Origin: Patescibacteria group bacterium
GTDB lineage: Bacteria; Patescibacteriota; WWE3; UBA101185; UBA10185
Length of the DNA stretch: 64,000 nt
Direction: 5' to 3'
NCBI GenBank assembly: GCA_049322215.1
Contig: JBMORU010000001.1
Span: 772,023 to 836,022, forward strand
The notes beneath the pieces are model-generated. The model was not told the origin of the DNA. It worked only from the letters and a program-made list of their open reading frames with translations, and did no database searches. Made by a program: the position numbers and the translations under genes. Positions 8,088 through 63,956 of this stretch are shown here, piece after piece; position 1 is the first letter of the stretch; each line of letters begins with the position of its first letter.

Positions 8088-8519
8088 ATGTTTGACTTTA
8101 GTTGGTTAAGGAAACTTTTTGGTAGTGGAAAAGCAAATAAAATAACTTTTCCCGGGTCCGTTAGTGTTTCGACACAGGTTGGCTTAGGTGCAGAAAAAGC
8201 TCAGCAAATTGCTGGAGTACTGCTAGTAAACCTGCAAATGCATTTTAGCTATACATTGCAAAACCAGCGTGTTATCGCCCAATTACGAAAGGCTTTGGAA
8301 AACCAAGAAAACTACGAGTGGTTACCTCAAAGCTGGTCCCAAATTTACACAACAAAAGATGATCTTGTTTTACTTGGATTTCGCTTGCGTTGGCTTGAAA
8401 GTGGACATCCTTACTTTGATATACGCACTGCACCGAAAGATCGTCTTGCCCTGTCGAGTTGGAACATAAGGCTAAGTTCTGAAATCTACGACCGTTGGAT
8501 TAAAGGACAATTCCGTTAA
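8088..8519 (+). CDS. hypothetical protein (143 aa)
   Basis: RBS aaaaggagagtcgcATG; intrinsic terminator about 8526-8575; GC-richer than backbone. Confidence 0.35.
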   Translation: MFDFSWLRKLFGSGKANKITFPGSVSVSTQVGLGAEKAQQIAGVLLVNLQMHFSYTLQNQRVIAQLRKALENQENYEWLPQSWSQIYTTKDDLVLLGFRLRWLESGHPYFDIRTAPKDRLALSSWNIRLSSEIYDRWIKGQFR

Positions 8520-8626
8520 CATTTCGCCGTATTTAGTACCTAAGCTTTTGTACTAAATGCGGCTTTTTTTTATTTTGCTAATTTTTGGTAAAATCTACTC
8601 ATACAAGCAAAGGAGATTCAAATACA

Positions 8627-9481
8627 ATGAAAAACTTTAACTACTTTTTTGAGCAACCTTTATTTAGGGGAATTTACGGACTGCATGTAATAAGTAATCC
8701 CGAACTCAATTTGGCATTACCTACGGTTTTAATTGTGGTTGGACCCTCTGGTGGAGGTAAAGATACTGTTTTAAGAGACTTGTTTGCAGATGGAACATAT
8801 GTTCATGCTATAACTTCAACAACGAGACGTCGCAGATATGAGTTTGCAGATGATGTTTCTGCGGATAAAAGAGTACAAATTCAGCAGCAACTAGAGAACC
8901 TAACTGACGGTGCCTACCTAGATTGTTTGGACGAGCTGGGCAAAGAGTCTGGTTTGTTTAAGTATCTTGAGTCTCGCGATGCGTACCTATGGCTAAGATC
9001 AAGAAAGCCGGAAGAAGAAGACGATGTTGTTTATCTGCAGCACTTAATTGATGAGTACGACTTAATTGAGTCAGATATACATCACGGAAATATTTACGGA
9101 TTGCCTAAAGCTAACTTGTATGCAGCGGCTCAAAAACCAGGTTTAACAGTTATTAGAACAGAACCTACTGGTGCAAAAACTCTTCTACAAAAACTGTCAG
9201 TGGAGTTTAACGTAGTGGTTTTAGGTGTAGTACCTGATTCACCAGAGGTAGTCAAAGCTAGAATTTTTGCAAGAGTAGAGCAATCAGGTAAGGGTGATGA
9301 AAACCCAGAATTACGTTTTAATGAATCTATGGTTTGGGTAGATGGATTTCCTGCTTTGGTTCATTTGGTGTTGCACAATACCGAAAAAAATGTGAATTAT
9401 CCTGGATTAGATGAACCTATAAAAGGTCTAGAAGCCTCTGTTTTAAGTTTAAGAGCCTTGGCACAGCAACTTAAACCTTAA
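8627..9481 (+). CDS. P-loop nucleoside monophosphate kinase-like protein (guanylate-kinase-like)
   Basis: VVGPSGGGKDTVLRDL P-loop plus AITSTTRRRRYEF resemble the guanylate kinase GPSGxGK...STTRxxR motifs; start moved to the ATG that has the aaggag RBS (ORF track begins 8585). Confidence 0.5.
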   Translation: MKNFNYFFEQPLFRGIYGLHVISNPELNLALPTVLIVVGPSGGGKDTVLRDLFADGTYVHAITSTTRRRRYEFADDVSADKRVQIQQQLENLTDGAYLDCLDELGKESGLFKYLESRDAYLWLRSRKPEEEDDVVYLQHLIDEYDLIESDIHHGNIYGLPKANLYAAAQKPGLTVIRTEPTGAKTLLQKLSVEFNVVVLGVVPDSPEVVKARIFARVEQSGKGDENPELRFNESMVWVDGFPALVHLVLHNTEKNVNYPGLDEPIKGLEASVLSLRALAQQLKP

Positions 9482-55005: not shown

Positions 55006-55079
55006 TGGGGGATGGTGTAAGGGTAGCACACTGGGTTTTGGTCCCAGGAATTGGGGTTCGAATCCCTGTCCCCCAGCCA
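55006..55079 (+). tRNA. tRNA-Gln (anticodon UUG)
   Basis: U1:A72 acceptor TGGGGGA/TCCCCCA, anticodon stem CTGGG/CCCAG, loop UUUUGGU, discriminator G + CCA, as in bacterial tRNA-Gln. Confidence 0.8.
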
Positions 55080-56071: not shown

Positions 56072-56326
56072 CAAGTACCCTGATGAGATAAATCTCATTA
56101 GGGTATGAGTGAATATACATAAACTTTTAAAATACGTCAACTATTTTAGATGTCTTTAATAAAGGAAACTTGCTTTTTGTTTTTGGATCTAAGTATCTTG
56201 CCTAATAAATGGCGCTATGAAATGCTTCTAACATTTTGTTACAGTAACACACTATAAATGATTTAATGTGTCCTAATATGATGTAAAATACAACTATAGT
56301 ACTTATGCAAAAATGAGGATAAAAAT

Positions 56327-58195
56327 ATGAATGAAGATAATAAGGTTGATGGGTTTTCGTTTAATCCACAACACGATTTAGTAGAGTTCTTAAAAGAAAA
56401 AGCACCTGAGGTATTTACCGAAGGAAAAATAGATGCAGATAAGTTAAACGCAACACTTGGAAATGTTGTATCTGTAGGTAGTGAGAAATATGGGCTAAAT
56501 TGGGCGGGAAAAAGCGACTGCTTTGCAGAAATTCAAAAAACTACAACAAATACTTTAAAGCCATTAAAAGATAAATCAATACGCTTTGACGAAACAGAAA
56601 ACATTTTTATTGAGGGTGAAAACCTAGAAGTTCTTAAAATATTGCAACGCTCTTATTTTAATAAAGTGAAAATGATTTATATTGACCCGCCTTATAACAC
56701 TGGGAGCGACAGCTTTATTTATGATGACAAGTTTAAGTCGAGCAAAGAATATTATGAGAAAGAGGCTGGTGTAAGGGATGGGAATGGAGATTTGAACAAA
56801 GACTCGCTATTTAGAAAAAATACAGCAGATTCTGGACGCTACCACTCTAATTGGTTGAATATGATGTATCCCCGCCTATTCCTGGCAAGAAACTTACTCC
56901 GCGAAGATGGGGTTATTTTTGTAAGTATAGATGGGTATGAGATGCACAATCTACGACTATTATTAGATGAAATTTTCGGAGAAGAGAACAAAGTAGGAGA
57001 ATTCATTTGGAAAAGCAAACACGGTGGAGGGGGTGACAACCCCTTTATGGTGCAAGAACATGAGTACATTCTTTTCTATGCCAAAAACATTAATGCACTT
57101 GAGCCTCTTTTTGTTACTCCTCCAGACAAGTATTTTGATATGTTCAGATACGAGGATTCTAAAGGTAAATATTATCTGGATAGACTAGATAAGAAGGGTA
57201 TAGACCAGAATCGACCCAACCTTATTTATCCAATTAAATGTCCAGATGGGACAACAAAAGATATCAGTCCCCAAATATGGCGATTGTCTGAAGAGGAATT
57301 TAATAAAAGGAAATCTGAGGGATTAGTAGAATTCAAGAAAGATAAAAACGGAGAATGGCAAATATATACAAAGACATATCTTAGGGACGAGGATGGAAAC
57401 AAGCGAAGAGTGAAACCTAGAAGTGTTCTAAAACAAGAAATTGTTGGATTTACACAAAATGGTAATAAGGAGATGGTAGAAATTTTCGGTACTAAGTTAT
57501 TTGATAATCCGAAGCCTGTATCACTAATTAAATTCTTTTCAGACATTGCACTTTATGACCATAAGGATGCCTTAACTTTAGATTTTTTTGCGGGTTCTGG
57601 TACTACCGCCCAAGCTGTAATGGAACTAAACAAAGAGGATGGGGGTAATAGAAAATTCATATTAGTACAGCTTCCTGAGTTAACAGAGGAAAAATCCGAA
57701 GCATACAAAGCAGGTTACAAAAACATTGCAGATATAACACTAGCCCGTATACAAAAAGTCTCAGAAAAGTTATCCAGGGAAGGTACAAAGACAGATTTGG
57801 GCGTTAAAACCTACAAACTGGACAAATCTAATTTCAAAATATGGCAGTCTGATAAAATCAAAGATGCAAAAGACCTGCAGCAGCAGATGCTTTCATTTAC
57901 TGATATCATCCAGCCTCACTCCACCAAAGAATCAATGCTCTACGAGATAATGTTGAAGTCAGGATACCCATTGACCTCAAAAGTTGAAAACAAAGGGAAA
58001 TACTACTCTATTGATAGTAATGCCGCTGTTATTTGTCTGGAAGAAAAGACTAATGGCGATATTGTAGAGGATGTTTTGAACCTACAACCCCAACTATTTA
58101 TCTGCTTAGATAGCGGATTTTCCAGAAACGACCAACTAAAAACAAATGCAAAGTTGCAATTTAAGGACAAAGGAATTGAATTTAAGGTTATATGA
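56327..58195 (+). CDS. mod: Type III restriction-modification DNA N6-adenine methyltransferase (Mod)
   Basis: IYIDPPYNTGSD (motif IV, DPPY) preceding FFAGSGTTAQA (motif I) = beta-class order typical of Type III Mod. Confidence 0.85.
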   Translation: MNEDNKVDGFSFNPQHDLVEFLKEKAPEVFTEGKIDADKLNATLGNVVSVGSEKYGLNWAGKSDCFAEIQKTTTNTLKPLKDKSIRFDETENIFIEGENLEVLKILQRSYFNKVKMIYIDPPYNTGSDSFIYDDKFKSSKEYYEKEAGVRDGNGDLNKDSLFRKNTADSGRYHSNWLNMMYPRLFLARNLLREDGVIFVSIDGYEMHNLRLLLDEIFGEENKVGEFIWKSKHGGGGDNPFMVQEHEYILFYAKNINALEPLFVTPPDKYFDMFRYEDSKGKYYLDRLDKKGIDQNRPNLIYPIKCPDGTTKDISPQIWRLSEEEFNKRKSEGLVEFKKDKNGEWQIYTKTYLRDEDGNKRRVKPRSVLKQEIVGFTQNGNKEMVEIFGTKLFDNPKPVSLIKFFSDIALYDHKDALTLDFFAGSGTTAQAVMELNKEDGGNRKFILVQLPELTEEKSEAYKAGYKNIADITLARIQKVSEKLSREGTKTDLGVKTYKLDKSNFKIWQSDKIKDAKDLQQQMLSFTDIIQPHSTKESMLYEIMLKSGYPLTSKVENKGKYYSIDSNAAVICLEEKTNGDIVEDVLNLQPQLFICLDSGFSRNDQLKTNAKLQFKDKGIEFKVI

Positions 58196-59793
58196 AAATA
58201 GAAAAGGTAACTATCAAGAATTTCAAATCAATCCAATACCAAGAAATTGATTTATATAACTACAATGTCTTTGTTGGCGAAAATAATTCTGGCAAATCCA
58301 ATTTTATTGCCGCCTTGAGAGCTTTCTATGACGAATACAAGCCCACTACAGAAGACTTTTGTATACATGCAACAGATAACGAGATGTATATAGAACTCAA
58401 ATTTGATTTGATTGGAGACGATATCACTAAAGCATTTTTTGAGGAAAAGAAAGGTAGCAAATACCTTTTAGAAGATGACAAGCTAGTGGTAAGAAGGGAT
58501 TATGTAAAAGATTCCTCAGGTTTGTTACAAGACAACAGTTATCATGGGTTTTTGCAGGAAGAACAGGCTTTTGATACCGACAACCAATTTTTTGGTACTA
58601 GAAGAGTCTCCAAGAGCATGCTCGGAGAAATTATATATATCCCCCCATTAACAGAAATTGGGGAGGCGTTAAAGACCTCAAGTAAATACAGTACCATAAT
58701 GAAACTTGTTAATAAGATTGTACAGCCTAAGTTAAAAGACAATAAAAATCTCCAAATAATAAACAATGAGATACAGCAGCTAAATGAAACATCTCCCTTT
58801 GAAGAAATAGAACAAAACATCAACACCTACATGCTAAGCTATTCCTGTGAAGTACAAATGTCCTTTGACAGTTTGAGTGTAGACAACATCTTTTCTAATA
58901 TATTTATGTCTGTAAAGGACTCAGAAACGGATTTCTTGCCTGTTGCCAACAAGGGAATGGGATTGCAAAGAGCATTGCTCATGAGCTTGTTGAAATATTG
59001 GGCTGCTGTAGAGAAAGAATCTAAACCCGACACTCCCACACAACCCCCGTCACTTTTAATAGTTGAAGAACCTGAAGTGCATCAACACCCGCAAAAGCAG
59101 TCCATGTTGTTCGACGAGTTGAAGAACATCGCCAAAGACTCCAACCAGGTTTTTATAACAACCCATTCTTCAAATTTTGTTAGCGAAGCGGACGATGACC
59201 TAAGATATGTTTTTAGAACAATGAAAAATGTCAACGATTGTACGGAATATTTACAAGTAAAAGAAGAGACAATAGATAAGTCGAAAGAAGCTGACAGGTT
59301 TAAGTTTTGGAAATATCTAGATGCTGAAAAGAATAAAATCTTTTTCTCAAATAAGACTGTGCTTTGTGAAGGTAATACAGAAAGATTACTTGCTAACTAC
59401 ATAATAAAGTCTGATGCCTATGTAGATGATTTTGGCACACAATCCGCAGTTACACTGATAGATTGTTGTGGAAAATACAATTTAGTGCATTTTATTCGCA
59501 TATGTGAGGATTTACATATCAATTACTCAATATTTTATGACCTTGATACCAACAAAAAAGATAAGAAACAACTAAATGAGGATGTTAATGAAGCTATTAA
59601 GAATTTATTAGATTCTGCTCAGTATCTAGTATCGAAACATGTGTGTGACGATAACCTAGATATATCTTTGTTCCAGGAAAACATAAGCAACGACCAAAAG
59701 ATGAATATCATAGAGAGAATTGAGGAAGGCAATTATGATACTGAAGTTTACGATAAATTGAAGTCATGCATAAAGGAGCTAGTGGAAGCATGA
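58192..59793 (+). CDS. OLD-family ATP-dependent nuclease (N-terminal ABC-type ATPase + C-terminal Toprim)
   Basis: MKIEKVTIKNFKSI...VFVGENNSGKSNFIAAL (Walker A), GMGLQRAL (signature-like), LLIVEEPEVHQHPQ (Walker B/D-loop), VFITTHS (H-loop), then TVLCEGNTE and DLD Toprim-like acidic motifs; ATGA overlaps at both ends. Confidence 0.7.
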   Translation: MKIEKVTIKNFKSIQYQEIDLYNYNVFVGENNSGKSNFIAALRAFYDEYKPTTEDFCIHATDNEMYIELKFDLIGDDITKAFFEEKKGSKYLLEDDKLVVRRDYVKDSSGLLQDNSYHGFLQEEQAFDTDNQFFGTRRVSKSMLGEIIYIPPLTEIGEALKTSSKYSTIMKLVNKIVQPKLKDNKNLQIINNEIQQLNETSPFEEIEQNINTYMLSYSCEVQMSFDSLSVDNIFSNIFMSVKDSETDFLPVANKGMGLQRALLMSLLKYWAAVEKESKPDTPTQPPSLLIVEEPEVHQHPQKQSMLFDELKNIAKDSNQVFITTHSSNFVSEADDDLRYVFRTMKNVNDCTEYLQVKEETIDKSKEADRFKFWKYLDAEKNKIFFSNKTVLCEGNTERLLANYIIKSDAYVDDFGTQSAVTLIDCCGKYNLVHFIRICEDLHINYSIFYDLDTNKKDKKQLNEDVNEAIKNLLDSAQYLVSKHVCDDNLDISLFQENISNDQKMNIIERIEEGNYDTEVYDKLKSCIKELVEA

Positions 59794-62507
59794 AACTAAA
59801 ATTTGACGCGAATCAAGAATACCAACTAAAAGCCATAGAATCTGTAGTTAACATATTCGAAGGACAACCATTAGCACAATCAGATTTTGAATTTTCAATT
59901 TCCACAGCTGCAGGAAGCTTGAGATTAACTGAAAATGGCATTGGTAATCAGTTATTACTTCCCCAAGATAAACTAATAGAGAATTTGCACCGCATACAAG
60001 AACTAAATAATTTACCAAAATCCGAAACAGAGCTTGTTGGTGGGGTTGGTCATGATTTAGTGGGAAGTGCCTTGGTTGGAGACACACACCACACAAAGGT
60101 ATTAAAAGAAGGCAGTAACTTTGCTATTGAAATGGAAACAGGAACAGGAAAAACCTATGTTTATCTACGAACAATTTATGAACTTAATCAAAAATATGGC
60201 TTTAAGAAATTCATAATAGTTGTGCCAAGCGTAGCAATCCGACAAGGTGTAATAAAAAACATTGAAATAACAAAGGAGCATTTCGATTCAATTTATGGCA
60301 AAGTTCCCGTTACAGCATCGGTTTATAACTCTAAAGATTTAGGAAAAATCCGTAGCTTTGCAACTAATAACAACTTGCAAATTTTGATACTAAATATAGA
60401 TTCATTTAATAAAGACATAAACAAAATTAACAACCCTCAAGATAAACTTTCAGGTAAACGCCCAATGGAATTTATCGCATCTACAAAACCAATTGTGATT
60501 GTTGATGAACCGCAAAACATGGAAACAAAGACTGCAAAGGATGCTATATCGATGCTAAACCCATTGTGTACGCTGAGATATTCGGCAACACATAGAAACA
60601 CTTATAACCTTGTATATAAACTCACCCCAGTCGATGCCTACGAGATGAACTTGGTTAAAAAGATAGAAGTAGATTCCGTTTTAACAGAAAATAACTTTAA
60701 TCAAGCCTATGTTGAACTTATATCTATAGATAACACTTCTAAAAATAAAATTGAGGCAAAAATAAAAATACTTGTGCAGGAAAAATCTGGCACCGCTACA
60801 AAACAGATTAAGGTAACAAGAGGTGACGATTTGTTTGAAAAGTCTGGTGGTGTTGAGGTATATCGTGAGGGCTATGTTGTGGACTCTCTTGACCGTCTAA
60901 ACCAGGAAATCGAATTTACAGGAGGTACAATTTTATCTGTGGGTAAAAGTATAGGAGACTTTTCCGAAGACATAATGAAAGTTCAGGTGCGGGAAACCAT
61001 CAAAGAACATTTAGAAAAGGAATTGATACTTAAAGAAAAGGGCATCAAAGTTCTATCTCTGTTTTTTATTGACCGTGTTGATAATTACCGAAAGTATGAA
61101 GACGGGATCTCCGTGAAAGGCAAACTAGCCATATGGTTTGAGGAAATATACGAGGAGTTGATTAAAATGCCTAAATACAATGTAATGGAACACCCCACCG
61201 CTGAAAAAGTACATAATGGCTACTTCTCTAAAGACAGAAAGGGCTTGTGGACTGATACACAGGGAGAAAGCCTTAAGGATATAGACACATACAAACTAAT
61301 CATGAGGGACAAAGAACGGTTACTGTCTATAGATGAGCCTCTTAAATTCATATTTTCACATTCAGCTTTAAGAGAAGGTTGGGATAATCCCAATGTTTTT
61401 CAAATCTGCACACTAAATGAGACTAGGTCGGAACTTAAAAAACGCCAAGAGATAGGGAGGGGTTTAAGAATTCCTGTAAACCAAAATGGAGAACGAGTTT
61501 TTGAAAATAATCTTAATATATTAACAGTTGTTGCAAATGAAAGTTACGAATCTTTTGCAAAATCTTTGCAGACAGAGATTGAACAAGACTTTGGTGTTGA
61601 ATTTAAAAATAAAATAAAAAACAAGAAAGAAAGAACAAGAGTAAAACTCAGAAAAGAATACAAACTTGATGAAAATTTTCTTGCTCTTTGGGAGAGAATT
61701 AAACACAGAACAAGGTATCAGGTAAATTTTGATACCGAGAAACTTATTCAAGATGCTGCAGCTGCAATTAACCAGATGGGAAAAACTCAAGAGGCAAAGA
61801 TTTTAACCAGCAAAGCTAAGGTTAAAATTGATGAAGAAGGAGTATCTTCACTTGTTCTAAGAGAAAAATCAGATGTAGTTTATTCTGCAATTTCTTATGT
61901 ACCAGATATTCTTGGGTATGTTCAGAGCCGCACGGGTTTAACACGTAGTACAATTGCGACTATTTTGGAGAAGTCTGAAAGACTGGATGACTTTTTAATA
62001 AACCCCCAGCTGTTCTTGGATGATGTCACCAAAATAATAAATAAAGTACTTGGTAAGCTTTCCGTTGATGGAATTAAATACGAAAAAATCTCCGGCGAGG
62101 AATACAAAATGGTGCTATTTGAATCTGAAGAGATTGAGTCATACTTGAAGAATATGTATAAAGTTCAAAATGAAGGAAAAACTTTATACGACCATGTCAT
62201 CTGGGACTCTGAAGTAGAAAATAAGTTTGCCCAAGAGTTGGATAGCAGAGAAGACATATCTTTTTACATTAAACTTCCTGCGTGGTTTAAAATAGATACG
62301 CCTGTAGGTACATATAACCCCGATTGGGCATTAGTATTTGAAGGTGATAAAAAGCTGTATTTTGTAGCAGAAACTAAGTCCGAAAATGAGGAATTGCGCG
62401 AAACCGAACAACTAAAGATTGAGTGCGGAAAACGCCATTTTGACAACTTTGATGGGATTGTTTTCAAAGCGCCTGTAAGTAAAGTTAGAGATGTAGTAGA
62501 AGAATAA
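59790..62507 (+). CDS. res: Type III restriction enzyme Res subunit (SF2 helicase + PD-ExK nuclease)
   Basis: AIEMETGTGKTYV (motif I), VIVDEPQNM (motif II), SALREGWDNPNVF and QEIGRGLRIP (motif VI), C-terminal NPDW...VAETK nuclease motif; start set to the ATG overlapping the OLD stop (ATGA). Confidence 0.85.
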   Translation: MKLKFDANQEYQLKAIESVVNIFEGQPLAQSDFEFSISTAAGSLRLTENGIGNQLLLPQDKLIENLHRIQELNNLPKSETELVGGVGHDLVGSALVGDTHHTKVLKEGSNFAIEMETGTGKTYVYLRTIYELNQKYGFKKFIIVVPSVAIRQGVIKNIEITKEHFDSIYGKVPVTASVYNSKDLGKIRSFATNNNLQILILNIDSFNKDINKINNPQDKLSGKRPMEFIASTKPIVIVDEPQNMETKTAKDAISMLNPLCTLRYSATHRNTYNLVYKLTPVDAYEMNLVKKIEVDSVLTENNFNQAYVELISIDNTSKNKIEAKIKILVQEKSGTATKQIKVTRGDDLFEKSGGVEVYREGYVVDSLDRLNQEIEFTGGTILSVGKSIGDFSEDIMKVQVRETIKEHLEKELILKEKGIKVLSLFFIDRVDNYRKYEDGISVKGKLAIWFEEIYEELIKMPKYNVMEHPTAEKVHNGYFSKDRKGLWTDTQGESLKDIDTYKLIMRDKERLLSIDEPLKFIFSHSALREGWDNPNVFQICTLNETRSELKKRQEIGRGLRIPVNQNGERVFENNLNILTVVANESYESFAKSLQTEIEQDFGVEFKNKIKNKKERTRVKLRKEYKLDENFLALWERIKHRTRYQVNFDTEKLIQDAAAAINQMGKTQEAKILTSKAKVKIDEEGVSSLVLREKSDVVYSAISYVPDILGYVQSRTGLTRSTIATILEKSERLDDFLINPQLFLDDVTKIINKVLGKLSVDGIKYEKISGEEYKMVLFESEEIESYLKNMYKVQNEGKTLYDHVIWDSEVENKFAQELDSREDISFYIKLPAWFKIDTPVGTYNPDWALVFEGDKKLYFVAETKSENEELRETEQLKIECGKRHFDNFDGIVFKAPVSKVRDVVEE

Positions 62508-62649
62508 TTAGAACTGTTATGTAAACTCTATATGAAGGTTTTAATCTCTACACTATGCGCAACCCCCTGAAGACCACACATATAGAATAATATCCAAAAC
62601 ATTAGCTTTCCCCAAAATACGTCAACTACTTTTGATACAATAAATATAT

Positions 62650-62814
62650 GCATAAAACAGCAAAAATTACTTTAATTATCATAGGAGTTCTATTATTTAT
62701 GAATGGAATTCTAAACATTATCGATGATACAAAAATATTAACCTACGATATCGCTTCTATTTTGTCAGGAATCGGATTTATCATTGTAAGTTTTTCAAAA
62801 AAAAATAACTAGCA
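62650..62814 (+). CDS. possible small 2-TM membrane peptide (54 aa), below the ORF-track cutoff
   Basis: ATG...TAG frame read by eye (MHKTAKITLIIIGVLLFMNG...); no clear RBS. Confidence 0.2.
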
Positions 62815-63371: not shown

Positions 63372-63956
63372 TTAACTCCTTGGTAACAACTTAGAATCTT
63401 CGATAATAGGTTTAAACTCTTCCCAAATTTCAGCGGGTAACTTAGATAATGATATTTTTTTGTCCTTATTAGGAACTAAAACTTCCCAAGTCATACCTTC
63501 TTCGCGCCAAGTTATACCGTTATCGAGGTAAATATTTATAACTGGGATAAGTTTTTCTGTAGCATTAACAAACCTGGCTTCAGCGTCAGCCTTTTCATTA
63601 TAGTCATGCAACAAAGTTACTAATTCTTTAAAGTTTGGAAATTGCTCACTAATTTGAGTAATTGCTTTTTTTTCAGCTTCATCCTTTTCTTTTTTTATTT
63701 TTTCGTTTATTTCAAAGTAATAGTCTCCCGTGATTGCCTCTGGTAAATCATGAACAATAGCGTATTTCAAAACTTTAGTTAAATCTAAATTTAAATTGTA
63801 TTCTGAAACTAAAAACCAACAGGTTAAAGCAACTTGAAAACTGTGTTCGGCGTCGTTTTCTTTGCGATTTTCACCTACGACACGAATCATTCTTTTTGTT
63901 TGCTGAAACTGATTACAAAATTTTGTAAATTCTAAAAGGGTTTCAATTTTACTCAT
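63372..63956 (-). CDS. HD-domain phosphohydrolase (YfbR-like 5'-deoxynucleotidase family)
   Basis: NDAEHSFQVA ... AIVHDLPEAITGD (H...HD...D metal motifs). Confidence 0.65.
   Translation of the reverse strand: MSKIETLLEFTKFCNQFQQTKRMIRVVGENRKENDAEHSFQVALTCWFLVSEYNLNLDLTKVLKYAIVHDLPEAITGDYYFEINEKIKKEKDEAEKKAITQISEQFPNFKELVTLLHDYNEKADAEARFVNATEKLIPVINIYLDNGITWREEGMTWEVLVPNKDKKISLSKLPAEIWEEFKPIIEDSKLLPRS

Follow-up and report, generated by a model that had tools for sequence, protein, structure and literature searches.

An OLD-family ATPase-Toprim gene in the mod-res interval of a Type III restriction-modification operon from a Patescibacteria genome

OLD proteins combine an ABC ATPase with a Toprim nuclease domain and have been sorted by their genomic surroundings into solitary genes (class 1), genes that stand with gajB (class 2) and genes in retrons (class 3) (PMC10568477). 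A 2026 preprint describes the OLD of phage P2 as a tetramer that is autoinhibited and, on sensing single-stranded DNA hairpins or DNA ends left unresolved, opens into dimers and cuts tRNA (10.64898/2026.07.10.737580). Payne, Hughes, Fineran and Jackson have found that the operons of Hma, BREX, DISARM and Type I restriction-modification (R-M) systems often hold embedded genes, which are mostly defence genes and are co-oriented in 96.7 % of cases; the commonest embedded family consists of ABC ATPases paired with TOPRIM, NERD or PIN domains, and the fused ATPase-TOPRIM protein HEC-04 defends alone, provided that its Walker A and Toprim acidic residues are intact (10.1101/2024.01.29.577857). Type III systems were outside that analysis. 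The protection given by TgvAB, whose genes lie in a Type I operon, does not depend on HsdR activity (PMC11411939), and PrrC and PARIS have been reviewed as 'R-M guardians' (PMC12707154). Here we describe a 64,000-nt stretch of DNA from a Patescibacteria group bacterium (GCA_049322215.1, contig JBMORU010000001.1, positions 772,023 to 836,022; hereafter the window), in which a gene for an OLD-family protein lies between the mod and res genes of a Type III R-M operon. At this locus a modification-based defence operon holds an embedded defence gene, which matches the published embedding pattern, here in a Type III system.

The cassette consists of three plus-strand open reading frames (ORFs; Table 1). 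A first-pass annotation of the same DNA had proposed that they are joined by ATGA overlaps into one operon, and both overlaps can be read in the sequence: the start codons of OLD and res overlap the stop codons of mod and OLD, respectively. An alternative ATG at 59766 would give a longer res ORF; we took 59790 as the start because the alignment of 24 Res homologues begins there, at the conserved MKL..FD..Q. Within the operon, neither promoter-like matches (21 compared to 32.7 in shuffled sequences) nor terminator-like matches (5 compared to 4.9) were above chance, with the reservation that the promoters of this host may not be sigma-70-like. Given the ATGA packing and the lack of an internal terminator, mod, OLD and res are almost certainly made from one transcript. 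The leader upstream of mod probably holds a putative operon promoter and a GAGGA ribosome-binding site. The mod and res genes share strand and order, yet the 1.6-kb OLD gene, on the same strand, parts them, and such nesting is what Payne et al. (2024) define as embedding. No difference from mod and res was found in the base composition and GC3 of the OLD gene. Two remarks of the first-pass annotation on the surroundings do not hold: the stretch is not particularly AT-rich, its GC content being 0.36 (mod), 0.35 (OLD) and 0.35 (res) where the window as a whole has 0.347, and tRNA-Gln (55006-55079), which had been placed next to the locus, is found 1.25 kb upstream with two ORFs between.

Table 1. 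Coordinates of features in the window, contents of the mod-res gap at related loci (slot cargo) and OLD loci found in metagenomes
Feature	Position or loci	Strand	Remarks
Direct repeat, left copy, 23 nt, AAAATACGTCAACTATTTTAGAT	56129..56151	+	21/23 identical to right copy
Operon leader	56276..56326	+	Conserved with sister locus L007; blastn homology begins 51 nt before mod ATG
mod	56327..58195	+	Type III beta-class N6-adenine DNA methyltransferase, 622 aa
mod variable middle, presumed target-recognition domain	56990..57563	+	Without DNA homology to L007, both flanks homologous
ATGA overlap mod/OLD	58192..58195	+	Sequence
OLD gene, class 1-like ABC ATPase-Toprim nuclease, embedded cargo	58192..59793	+	533 aa; profiles, structure match, predicted fold
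OLD ABC ATPase domain, aa 1-330	58192..59181	+	AAA_15; K35, GMGLQR 255-260, E292/E293, H325
OLD Toprim nuclease domain, aa 384-452	59341..59547	+	OLD-like_TOPRIM; E393, D450xD452
ATGA overlap OLD/res	59790..59793	+	Sequence; start backed by family alignment
res, superfamily 2 (SF2) helicase-like ATPase with C-terminal PD-(D/E)xK nuclease	59790..62507	+	905 aa; profiles, motifs, family alignment
Direct repeat, right copy, 23 nt	62614..62636	+	107 nt past res stop codon
YfbR-like HD phosphohydrolase gene	63372..63956	-	Outside the system; synteny anchor; 72.5 % identical to L007 14411-15019
Slot cargo: AlbA_2/Schlafen-like proteins	9 ORFs in 8 loci		
Slot cargo: ABC ATPase + DUF4276 pairs	L039, L034, L047		PADLOC HEC-01A/B, down to 1e-140; ATPase only in L021
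Slot cargo: other ABC ATPases	L053, L071		L053 Ppl-like
Slot cargo: YhcG nucleases	4		
Slot cargo: Fic	4		
Slot cargo: KilA-N, Bro-N, PDDEXK_3, DUF5677	2 loci each		
Slot cargo: GmrSD	L012, L037		
Slot cargo: SIR2 + HerA	L018 7236-10004		
Slot cargo: Shedu	L037 7026-9969		With GmrSD
Slot cargo: KAP NTPase / QueC-like / TatD set	L046 5071-9747		Resembles Qat
Slot cargo: class I short prokaryotic Argonaute (pAgo)	L026 5887-9995		With upstream 387-aa partner
Slot cargo: PDC-M11A	L029		
Slot cargo: MORC-like GHKL ATPases	L061, L070		With extra methylases
Slot cargo: genes without family match	Several loci		
HindIII endonuclease, methylase, OLD	L099		Metagenome
TdeIII endonuclease, OLD	L100		Metagenome
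MmeI-like enzyme, OLD	L105		Metagenome
OLD, 78-aa ORF, PglZ	L095		Metagenome
OLD, mod, res	L096 868-6835		Metagenome; 5-nt spacers
Mod-like gene, 495-aa unknown gene, 662-aa OLD, ResIII-type gene	L144 1490-9364		Metagenome
mod, res, GajA, GajB	L140		Metagenome; mod and res of the window's family
OLD in phage-replication context	L098		Metagenome

The two outer genes give the locus the appearance of a working Type III R-M operon. Every Type III motif cited for them in the first-pass annotation was located, and profile searches agree. Mod has DPPY (residues 120-123) ahead of FAGSG (421-425), that is motif IV before motif I as in the beta class, and matches Pfam N6_N4_Mtase (1e-30) and, over its full length, PADLOC MTase_III (PDLC03634, 1e-184). 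Res carries TGTGKT (117-122), DEPQ (239-242), REGWDNP (528-534), PDWA (844-847) and ETK (861-863) and matches ResIII, RE_endonuc (3e-37) and PADLOC REase_III (1e-303). It also keeps all of the approximately 250 residues that are invariant in the alignment of 24 Res homologues.

The OLD-family architecture proposed for the middle gene was likewise recovered, with all the cited motifs present: GENNSGKS (29-36), GMGLQRAL (255-262), IVEEPE (290-295) and TTHS (323-326) in the ATPase, CEGNTE (392-397) and YDLD (449-452) in the Toprim segment. Pfam assigns AAA_15 at 2e-38 and OLD-like_TOPRIM at 7e-13, and the best PADLOC model is 'Old' (PDLC02358, 3.8e-66, aa 1-513), followed by AriA (6e-43) and the GajA models (about 1e-40); no HEC model is found within the best 25 PADLOC matches. 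The protein is only about 17-22 % identical to characterised OLD proteins. Among solved structures it is closest in sequence to 6p74, the class 1 OLD of Thermus scotoductus (5e-17), and next to GajA (about 1e-14). In the alignment to 6p74, E393 corresponds to E377 and D450/D452 to D431/D433. Across 35 homologues K35, E292/E293, P294, E295, H299, H325, S326, E393, G394, D450 and D452 are invariant or nearly so, E393 and D450 strictly. An AlphaFold model built on the same alignment (pLDDT 85.7, pTM 0.85) agrees with the OLD/GajA fold anticipated in the first-pass annotation: a Foldseek comparison with the PDB places it nearest to 6p74 (E 7e-25, TM 0.66/0.69), with GajA second (about 1e-21) and then the retron Eco8 effector (about 1e-18). 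By sequence and predicted fold, the OLD protein is a complete, class 1-like ATPase-Toprim protein with intact catalytic residues. Its gene has mod and res as its only immediate neighbours, and Res is an SF2 protein of the ResIII type and not of the UvrD type; no UvrD-family helicase gene is found at 52-64 kb of the window and no reverse transcriptase nearby.

How does this locus compare with the described systems? Class 1 OLD (P2 Old, 6p74) provides the best sequence and fold match and, like the window protein, has neither a UvrD helicase nor a reverse-transcriptase partner. The identity is however about 17 %, and class 1 genes are described as solitary and away from defence genes (PMC10568477) whereas this one is nested in an R-M operon. 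Thus class 1-like OLD genes are not always solitary. The first-pass annotation had listed OLD-type nucleases as occurring alone, with UvrD-type helicases or in PARIS-like pairs, a list that is out of date since embedded ABC-ATPase/TOPRIM genes have been described (Payne et al. 2024). Of the latter, HEC-04 (fused) and HEC-01 (split) resemble the window gene in being co-oriented ABC ATPase plus Toprim modules within a DNA-modification-based defence operon, and HEC-01A/B pairs even fill the same position between mod and res at three related loci (Table 1). They differ in that their published hosts are Hma, BREX, DISARM and Type I R-M and that the window protein is best matched by PADLOC Old.

PARIS and Gabija use the same ATPase-Toprim toolkit. 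In PARIS the ATPase AriA and the Toprim protein AriB are separate, whereas the window OLD is fused in one ORF. Gabija supplies the second-best fold match through GajA, but it depends on a UvrD-like helicase encoded next to it and carries a helical insert within its Toprim domain, neither of which applies to the window OLD; a true Gabija pair does sit downstream of a Type III R-M system of the window's family in L140. PrrC of the Type Ic system EcoprrI resembles the locus in layout: an NTPase-nuclease gene is embedded in an ATP-dependent R-M system, with modification genes on one side and the restriction gene on the other, and acts as a back-up when restriction is blocked (PMC12707154). It differs in having its own anticodon-nuclease domain and no Toprim, in its occurrence almost always at Type I loci and in its proven association with its R-M enzyme. 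Finally, the GmrSD-like TgvAB of the Vibrio cholerae VPI-2 Type I R-M system and BrxU of BREX are also second restriction-type systems nested in a host operon. They belong to another protein family and another type of host system, and they work without host nuclease activity (PMC11411939); GmrSD genes are found in the Type III position as well (L012, L037).

Among Res homologues the closest, at 82 % identity, is P0122 from the sister locus L007. In L007 and in L008 the gene order is mod, an 87-aa gene, a 174-aa gene and res, with a PDDEXK_1 gene after res in L007; in L009, with a Res homologue at 57 %, the order is mod, a 108-aa gene, a 213-aa gene and res. We consider L007 to be a related genome with the same R-M family in the same neighbourhood because the downstream HD phosphohydrolase gene is common to both (72.5 %). 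The blastn homology between the window and L007 falls into three blocks, 56276-56989 (76 %), 57564-58191 (68 %) and 59790-62481 (75 %), and it breaks precisely at the ends of the OLD gene, at 58192 and 59789. This is the signature expected of a precise cassette difference between conserved arms. The other break lies within mod, and the Mod proteins are 61 % identical overall compared to 82 % for Res; this pattern fits a swapped target-recognition domain and hence another methylation specificity.

The two islands differ on both sides as well as in what lies between mod and res. Upstream of its R-M genes L007 has a large serine recombinase of 594 aa (L007 2420-4204). After res (L007 11712-13816) it carries extra genes that are absent from the window, the PDDEXK_1 gene, which overlaps the res stop codon, and an AAA_14/DUF4143 gene.

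We extended the comparison to the Res family. In species-representative genomes, an alignment-based scan confirmed 588 Res relatives, of which the best 80 (Res 45-56 % identical, from many phyla) were surveyed. Both mod and res were located at 64 loci, namely 60 of the 80 surveyed, L007-L009 and the window. While mod abuts res in 20 of the 64, a gap of 241-6957 bp separates them in 44 (69 %), and two more loci, cut by contig ends, also seem gapped. Most ORFs in the gaps (78 of 88) are co-oriented with mod and res, and the 10 on the opposite strand, 57-141 aa in length, are probably spurious. Among the gap ORFs of the surveyed loci, a -4 overlap is the most frequent spacing at both junctions. 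The ATGA coupling is therefore no evidence of a shared complex, since such overlaps are typical of any cargo in this position. The cargo itself includes known defence systems that are autonomous (Table 1). Taken together, these loci indicate that the mod-res junction of this Type III family is a variable slot for different defence genes. On the question raised in the first-pass annotation, whether mod-OLD-res synteny recurs in related genomes, the result is twofold: embedding in the slot is common, and a fused ATPase-Toprim OLD was found there in the window alone and in none of the other 63 loci with both genes.

Our literature search on embedding between Type III mod and res returned no describing paper, and such a slot does not seem to have been described before. 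The nearest reports are a Cas4 phylogenomic study that notes accessory genes in Type III neighbourhoods (PMC5704561), one on Type III-like operons that contain MORC genes (PMC2292703) and one on m4C Type III systems, in which an additional helicase-like gene lies upstream of mod (PMC8259958).

Several genes in the slot have no Pfam match: L007 8214-8998 (of which the ORF at 8420-8998 was scanned), L059 9253-10011, L063 9282-10004, L061 8787-10001, L046 6934-7698 and L028 6115-6780. One more, L071 7497-8489, matches nothing in Pfam or PADLOC and adjoins an AriA/PtuA-like ATPase in a second Patescibacteria (Nomurabacteria) genome. By the logic of embedding, these unmatched genes are candidate new defence genes. 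At two further loci one of the R-M genes is split into two adjacent ORFs, mod in L140 (935-2943) and res in L066 (1023-3745), which may reflect a frameshift, phase variation or an assembly error.

The relatives of the OLD protein itself are few. It forms a singleton cluster at 90 % identity, encoded on a 1.11-Mb contig, and the arrangement with this lineage occurs once in a collection of 5.8 billion proteins. The lineage also appears rare among species-representative genomes, because a scan of these with the OLD protein alone found no relative. Only two relatives are more than 30 % identical to it: P0002 (47 %) comes after two Dam-like methylase genes and an AlwI-type endonuclease gene, and P0003 (48 %) before a GmrSD/HNH gene and a DpnI-like gene. 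In the next tier, at 25-29 % identity, the P0006 gene comes after an HsdR-like gene and a fused methylase-specificity gene, P0012 adjoins a serine recombinase gene and N6_N4 methylase genes, and P0014, from Tepidiphilus, lies in a Type I operon of the order hsdM, AlbA_2, Fic, hsdS, OLD, HSDR_N, RhuM/Fic, hsdR.

A metagenome scan added 80 further OLD loci, and we tallied the neighbours of the 28 most similar to the window OLD. Their flanks hold PglZ, N6_N4, D12, Eco57I, MmeI and EcoRI methylases, HindIII and TdeIII endonucleases, Methylase_S and ResIII. L144 (Table 1) is a second case of an OLD between Mod-like and ResIII-type genes, built from other lineages. The OLD lineage thus accompanies Type I, II, IIG, III-like and IV restriction systems as well as BREX genes and is not tied to Type III. 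That its homologues also occur outside a Type III host argues against an obligate subunit of such an enzyme.

The Type I operon of Tepidiphilus succinatimandens (L090 1855-14291) has five genes nested between hsdM and hsdR. Its full-length OLD overlaps the end of hsdS, its HSDR_N gene is a fragment, and its cargo families recur in the Type III slot.

The 23-nt direct repeats bracket the whole mod-OLD-res cassette, and their 15-nt core is present at these two sites only in the 64 kb, where 0.02 would be expected by chance. The 23-nt repeat is absent from all 174 loci compared, L007 included. These data fit a mod-OLD-res unit that arrived as a mobile cassette, and the repeat may be a target duplication or a recombination site of a mobile R-M unit. 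We looked for a signature of integration at tRNA-Gln and found no repeat of its 3' end downstream; the sole tRNA-related repeat is the T-arm common to tRNA-Val and tRNA-Gln. Two further ideas on the history of the locus were given up. A Patescibacteria hotspot shared beside the HD gene is fitted only by the pair of window and L007, the HD genes in L001 and L003 being distant (32 %) or unrelated. An OLD as resident gene with R-M systems swapping around it was dropped, given that these HD genes near OLD relatives are the same distant or unrelated ones.

The left repeat copy overlaps a minus-strand promoter-like site, TTGACG...TATATT, at 56140-56112. Between the right copy and a NUDIX gene lies a small plus-strand ORF of about 54 aa (62650-62812), hydrophobic and beginning MHKTAKITLIIIGVLLF, which fell under the cut-off of the ORF list.

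Which role would such an embedded OLD play? We lean towards the reading that it is an autonomous, class 1-like cargo nuclease in the mod/res slot of a Type III operon and acts as a second line of defence, and it is probably an embedded, autonomous abortive-infection module. The gene looks like an insertion into the R-M operon because the sister locus swaps it for unrelated genes and because the slot cargo is diverse; the first-pass annotation had offered a defence gene inserted into the operon as its alternative, and this is what the comparative data show. We hypothesize that a Mod dimer with Res would methylate one strand of an asymmetric site, while Res would slide on DNA at the expense of ATP and cut when two unmodified, inversely oriented sites are engaged, providing the first line of defence. 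OLD would be an autoinhibited homo-oligomer whose ATPase domain senses an infection cue, for example a phage protein or phage DNA that is aberrant or replicating. The cue would open the Toprim site, which would then cut tRNA, like P2 OLD and the PARIS protein AriB, or DNA, which Thermus OLD and GajA cleave in vitro. Such cleavage would arrest the infected cell and act against phages that escape restriction. Nesting would provide co-inheritance and co-expression with the R-M system, and no physical complex would be needed.

Some points weigh against this reading. The sequence does not distinguish between tRNA and DNA as the substrate, and transcription, methylation, restriction and OLD activity are all deduced from it for this locus. 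Comparative genomics alone is the ground for taking OLD to be independent of Mod and Res, and it may be linked to them physically or through regulation. Furthermore, the OLD lineage adjoins restriction or modification genes in most of the contexts examined, and does so more often than it adjoins other kinds of defence gene; this adjacency could mean a functional tie. R-M systems are, on the other hand, the commonest defence genes, so that adjacency may reflect base rates.

The main rival reading is that OLD is a sentinel like PrrC or PARIS, which would be silent while the Type III enzyme works, or would sense anti-restriction proteins such as DNA mimics, and would fire, probably as a tRNase, once a phage disables restriction. 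We regard this as possible, though unlikely. The layout is indeed like that of prrC between hsdM/S and hsdR of EcoprrI, where PrrC is released by the T4 Stp peptide (PMC12707154). Anti-restriction proteins can trigger ABC ATPase/Toprim systems, Ocr doing so for PARIS and Gabija and Stp for PARIS, and P2 OLD and AriB cut tRNA, as PrrC does. The positions of OLD relatives beside or inside restriction systems of so many types, often overlapping or near-abutting, are also in its favour, and translational coupling would bind the dosage of OLD to that of Mod and Res. However, the type of the restriction partner varies among the relatives, making a conserved, specific lock with Res or Mod unlikely. 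A guardian function is also not plausible for some of the other cargo in the slot, for example GmrSD, pAgo, Shedu and SIR2-HerA. Some OLD relatives are found in phage-replication or recombinase contexts with no adjoining restriction enzyme, and the base rate of R-M genes noted above applies here too.

Slightly less likely still is the idea that OLD is a PrrC-like guardian of a Type III enzyme, a latent Toprim tRNase checked by, or tuned to, the co-translated Mod and Res and freed when a phage blocks Type III restriction. If it were true, the whole lineage of OLD proteins of about 530-600 aa would be a general sensor of restriction failure, which would explain its place beside all restriction types.

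It is conceivable that OLD has no defence role and is a selfish or decaying hitch-hiker, kept only through its linkage to an addictive R-M cassette, or a protein of DNA repair or recombination. The cassette does look mobile, bracketed as it is by direct repeats, and defence by class 1 OLD has been shown for one member only, P2 Old (PMC10568477). Payne et al. also raise a selfish linkage benefit for embedded genes (10.1101/2024.01.29.577857). We nevertheless find this improbable: the ORF is full length with its catalytic residues all intact and a confident fold prediction, the cargo of the slot and of other embedding hosts is overwhelmingly defence-related, and a reduced genome of 1.1 Mb is unlikely to retain 1.6 kb of useless coding sequence.

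Least probable, though by a narrow margin, and not supported by our comparison is the composite enzyme favoured in the first-pass annotation, in which Mod, OLD and Res would be one machine with OLD an added nuclease or sensor exploiting the Res SF2 motor, much as GajA cooperates with the GajB helicase. In its favour, the three genes are tightly coupled, Gabija is a case of an OLD-family protein working with a helicase (PMC10568477), and L144 and L096 show OLD between or before such genes. Against it, the arrangement with this lineage is a singleton, -4 overlaps are usual for any slot cargo, the nearest Res homologues have unrelated cargo exactly in place of OLD and the slot holds diverse cargo at 44 of 64 loci with no other fused OLD, Mod and Res appear complete without OLD given the loci where they abut and the invariant residues that Res keeps, and the fold is nearest to the stand-alone class 1 OLD and not to GajA.

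If OLD is an autonomous embedded defence gene, the locus would represent two layered defences on one transcript in place of a new three-component restriction machine, and it would be an example of layered immunity in the small genome of a Patescibacteria member. The window and L007 form a natural cassette-swap pair for probing the functional synergy of embedding. More generally, the slot holds known systems plus several compact genes that match no family, and with Type III left out of the embedding survey, the mod/res slot of these systems may be an unexploited place to seek new defence genes.

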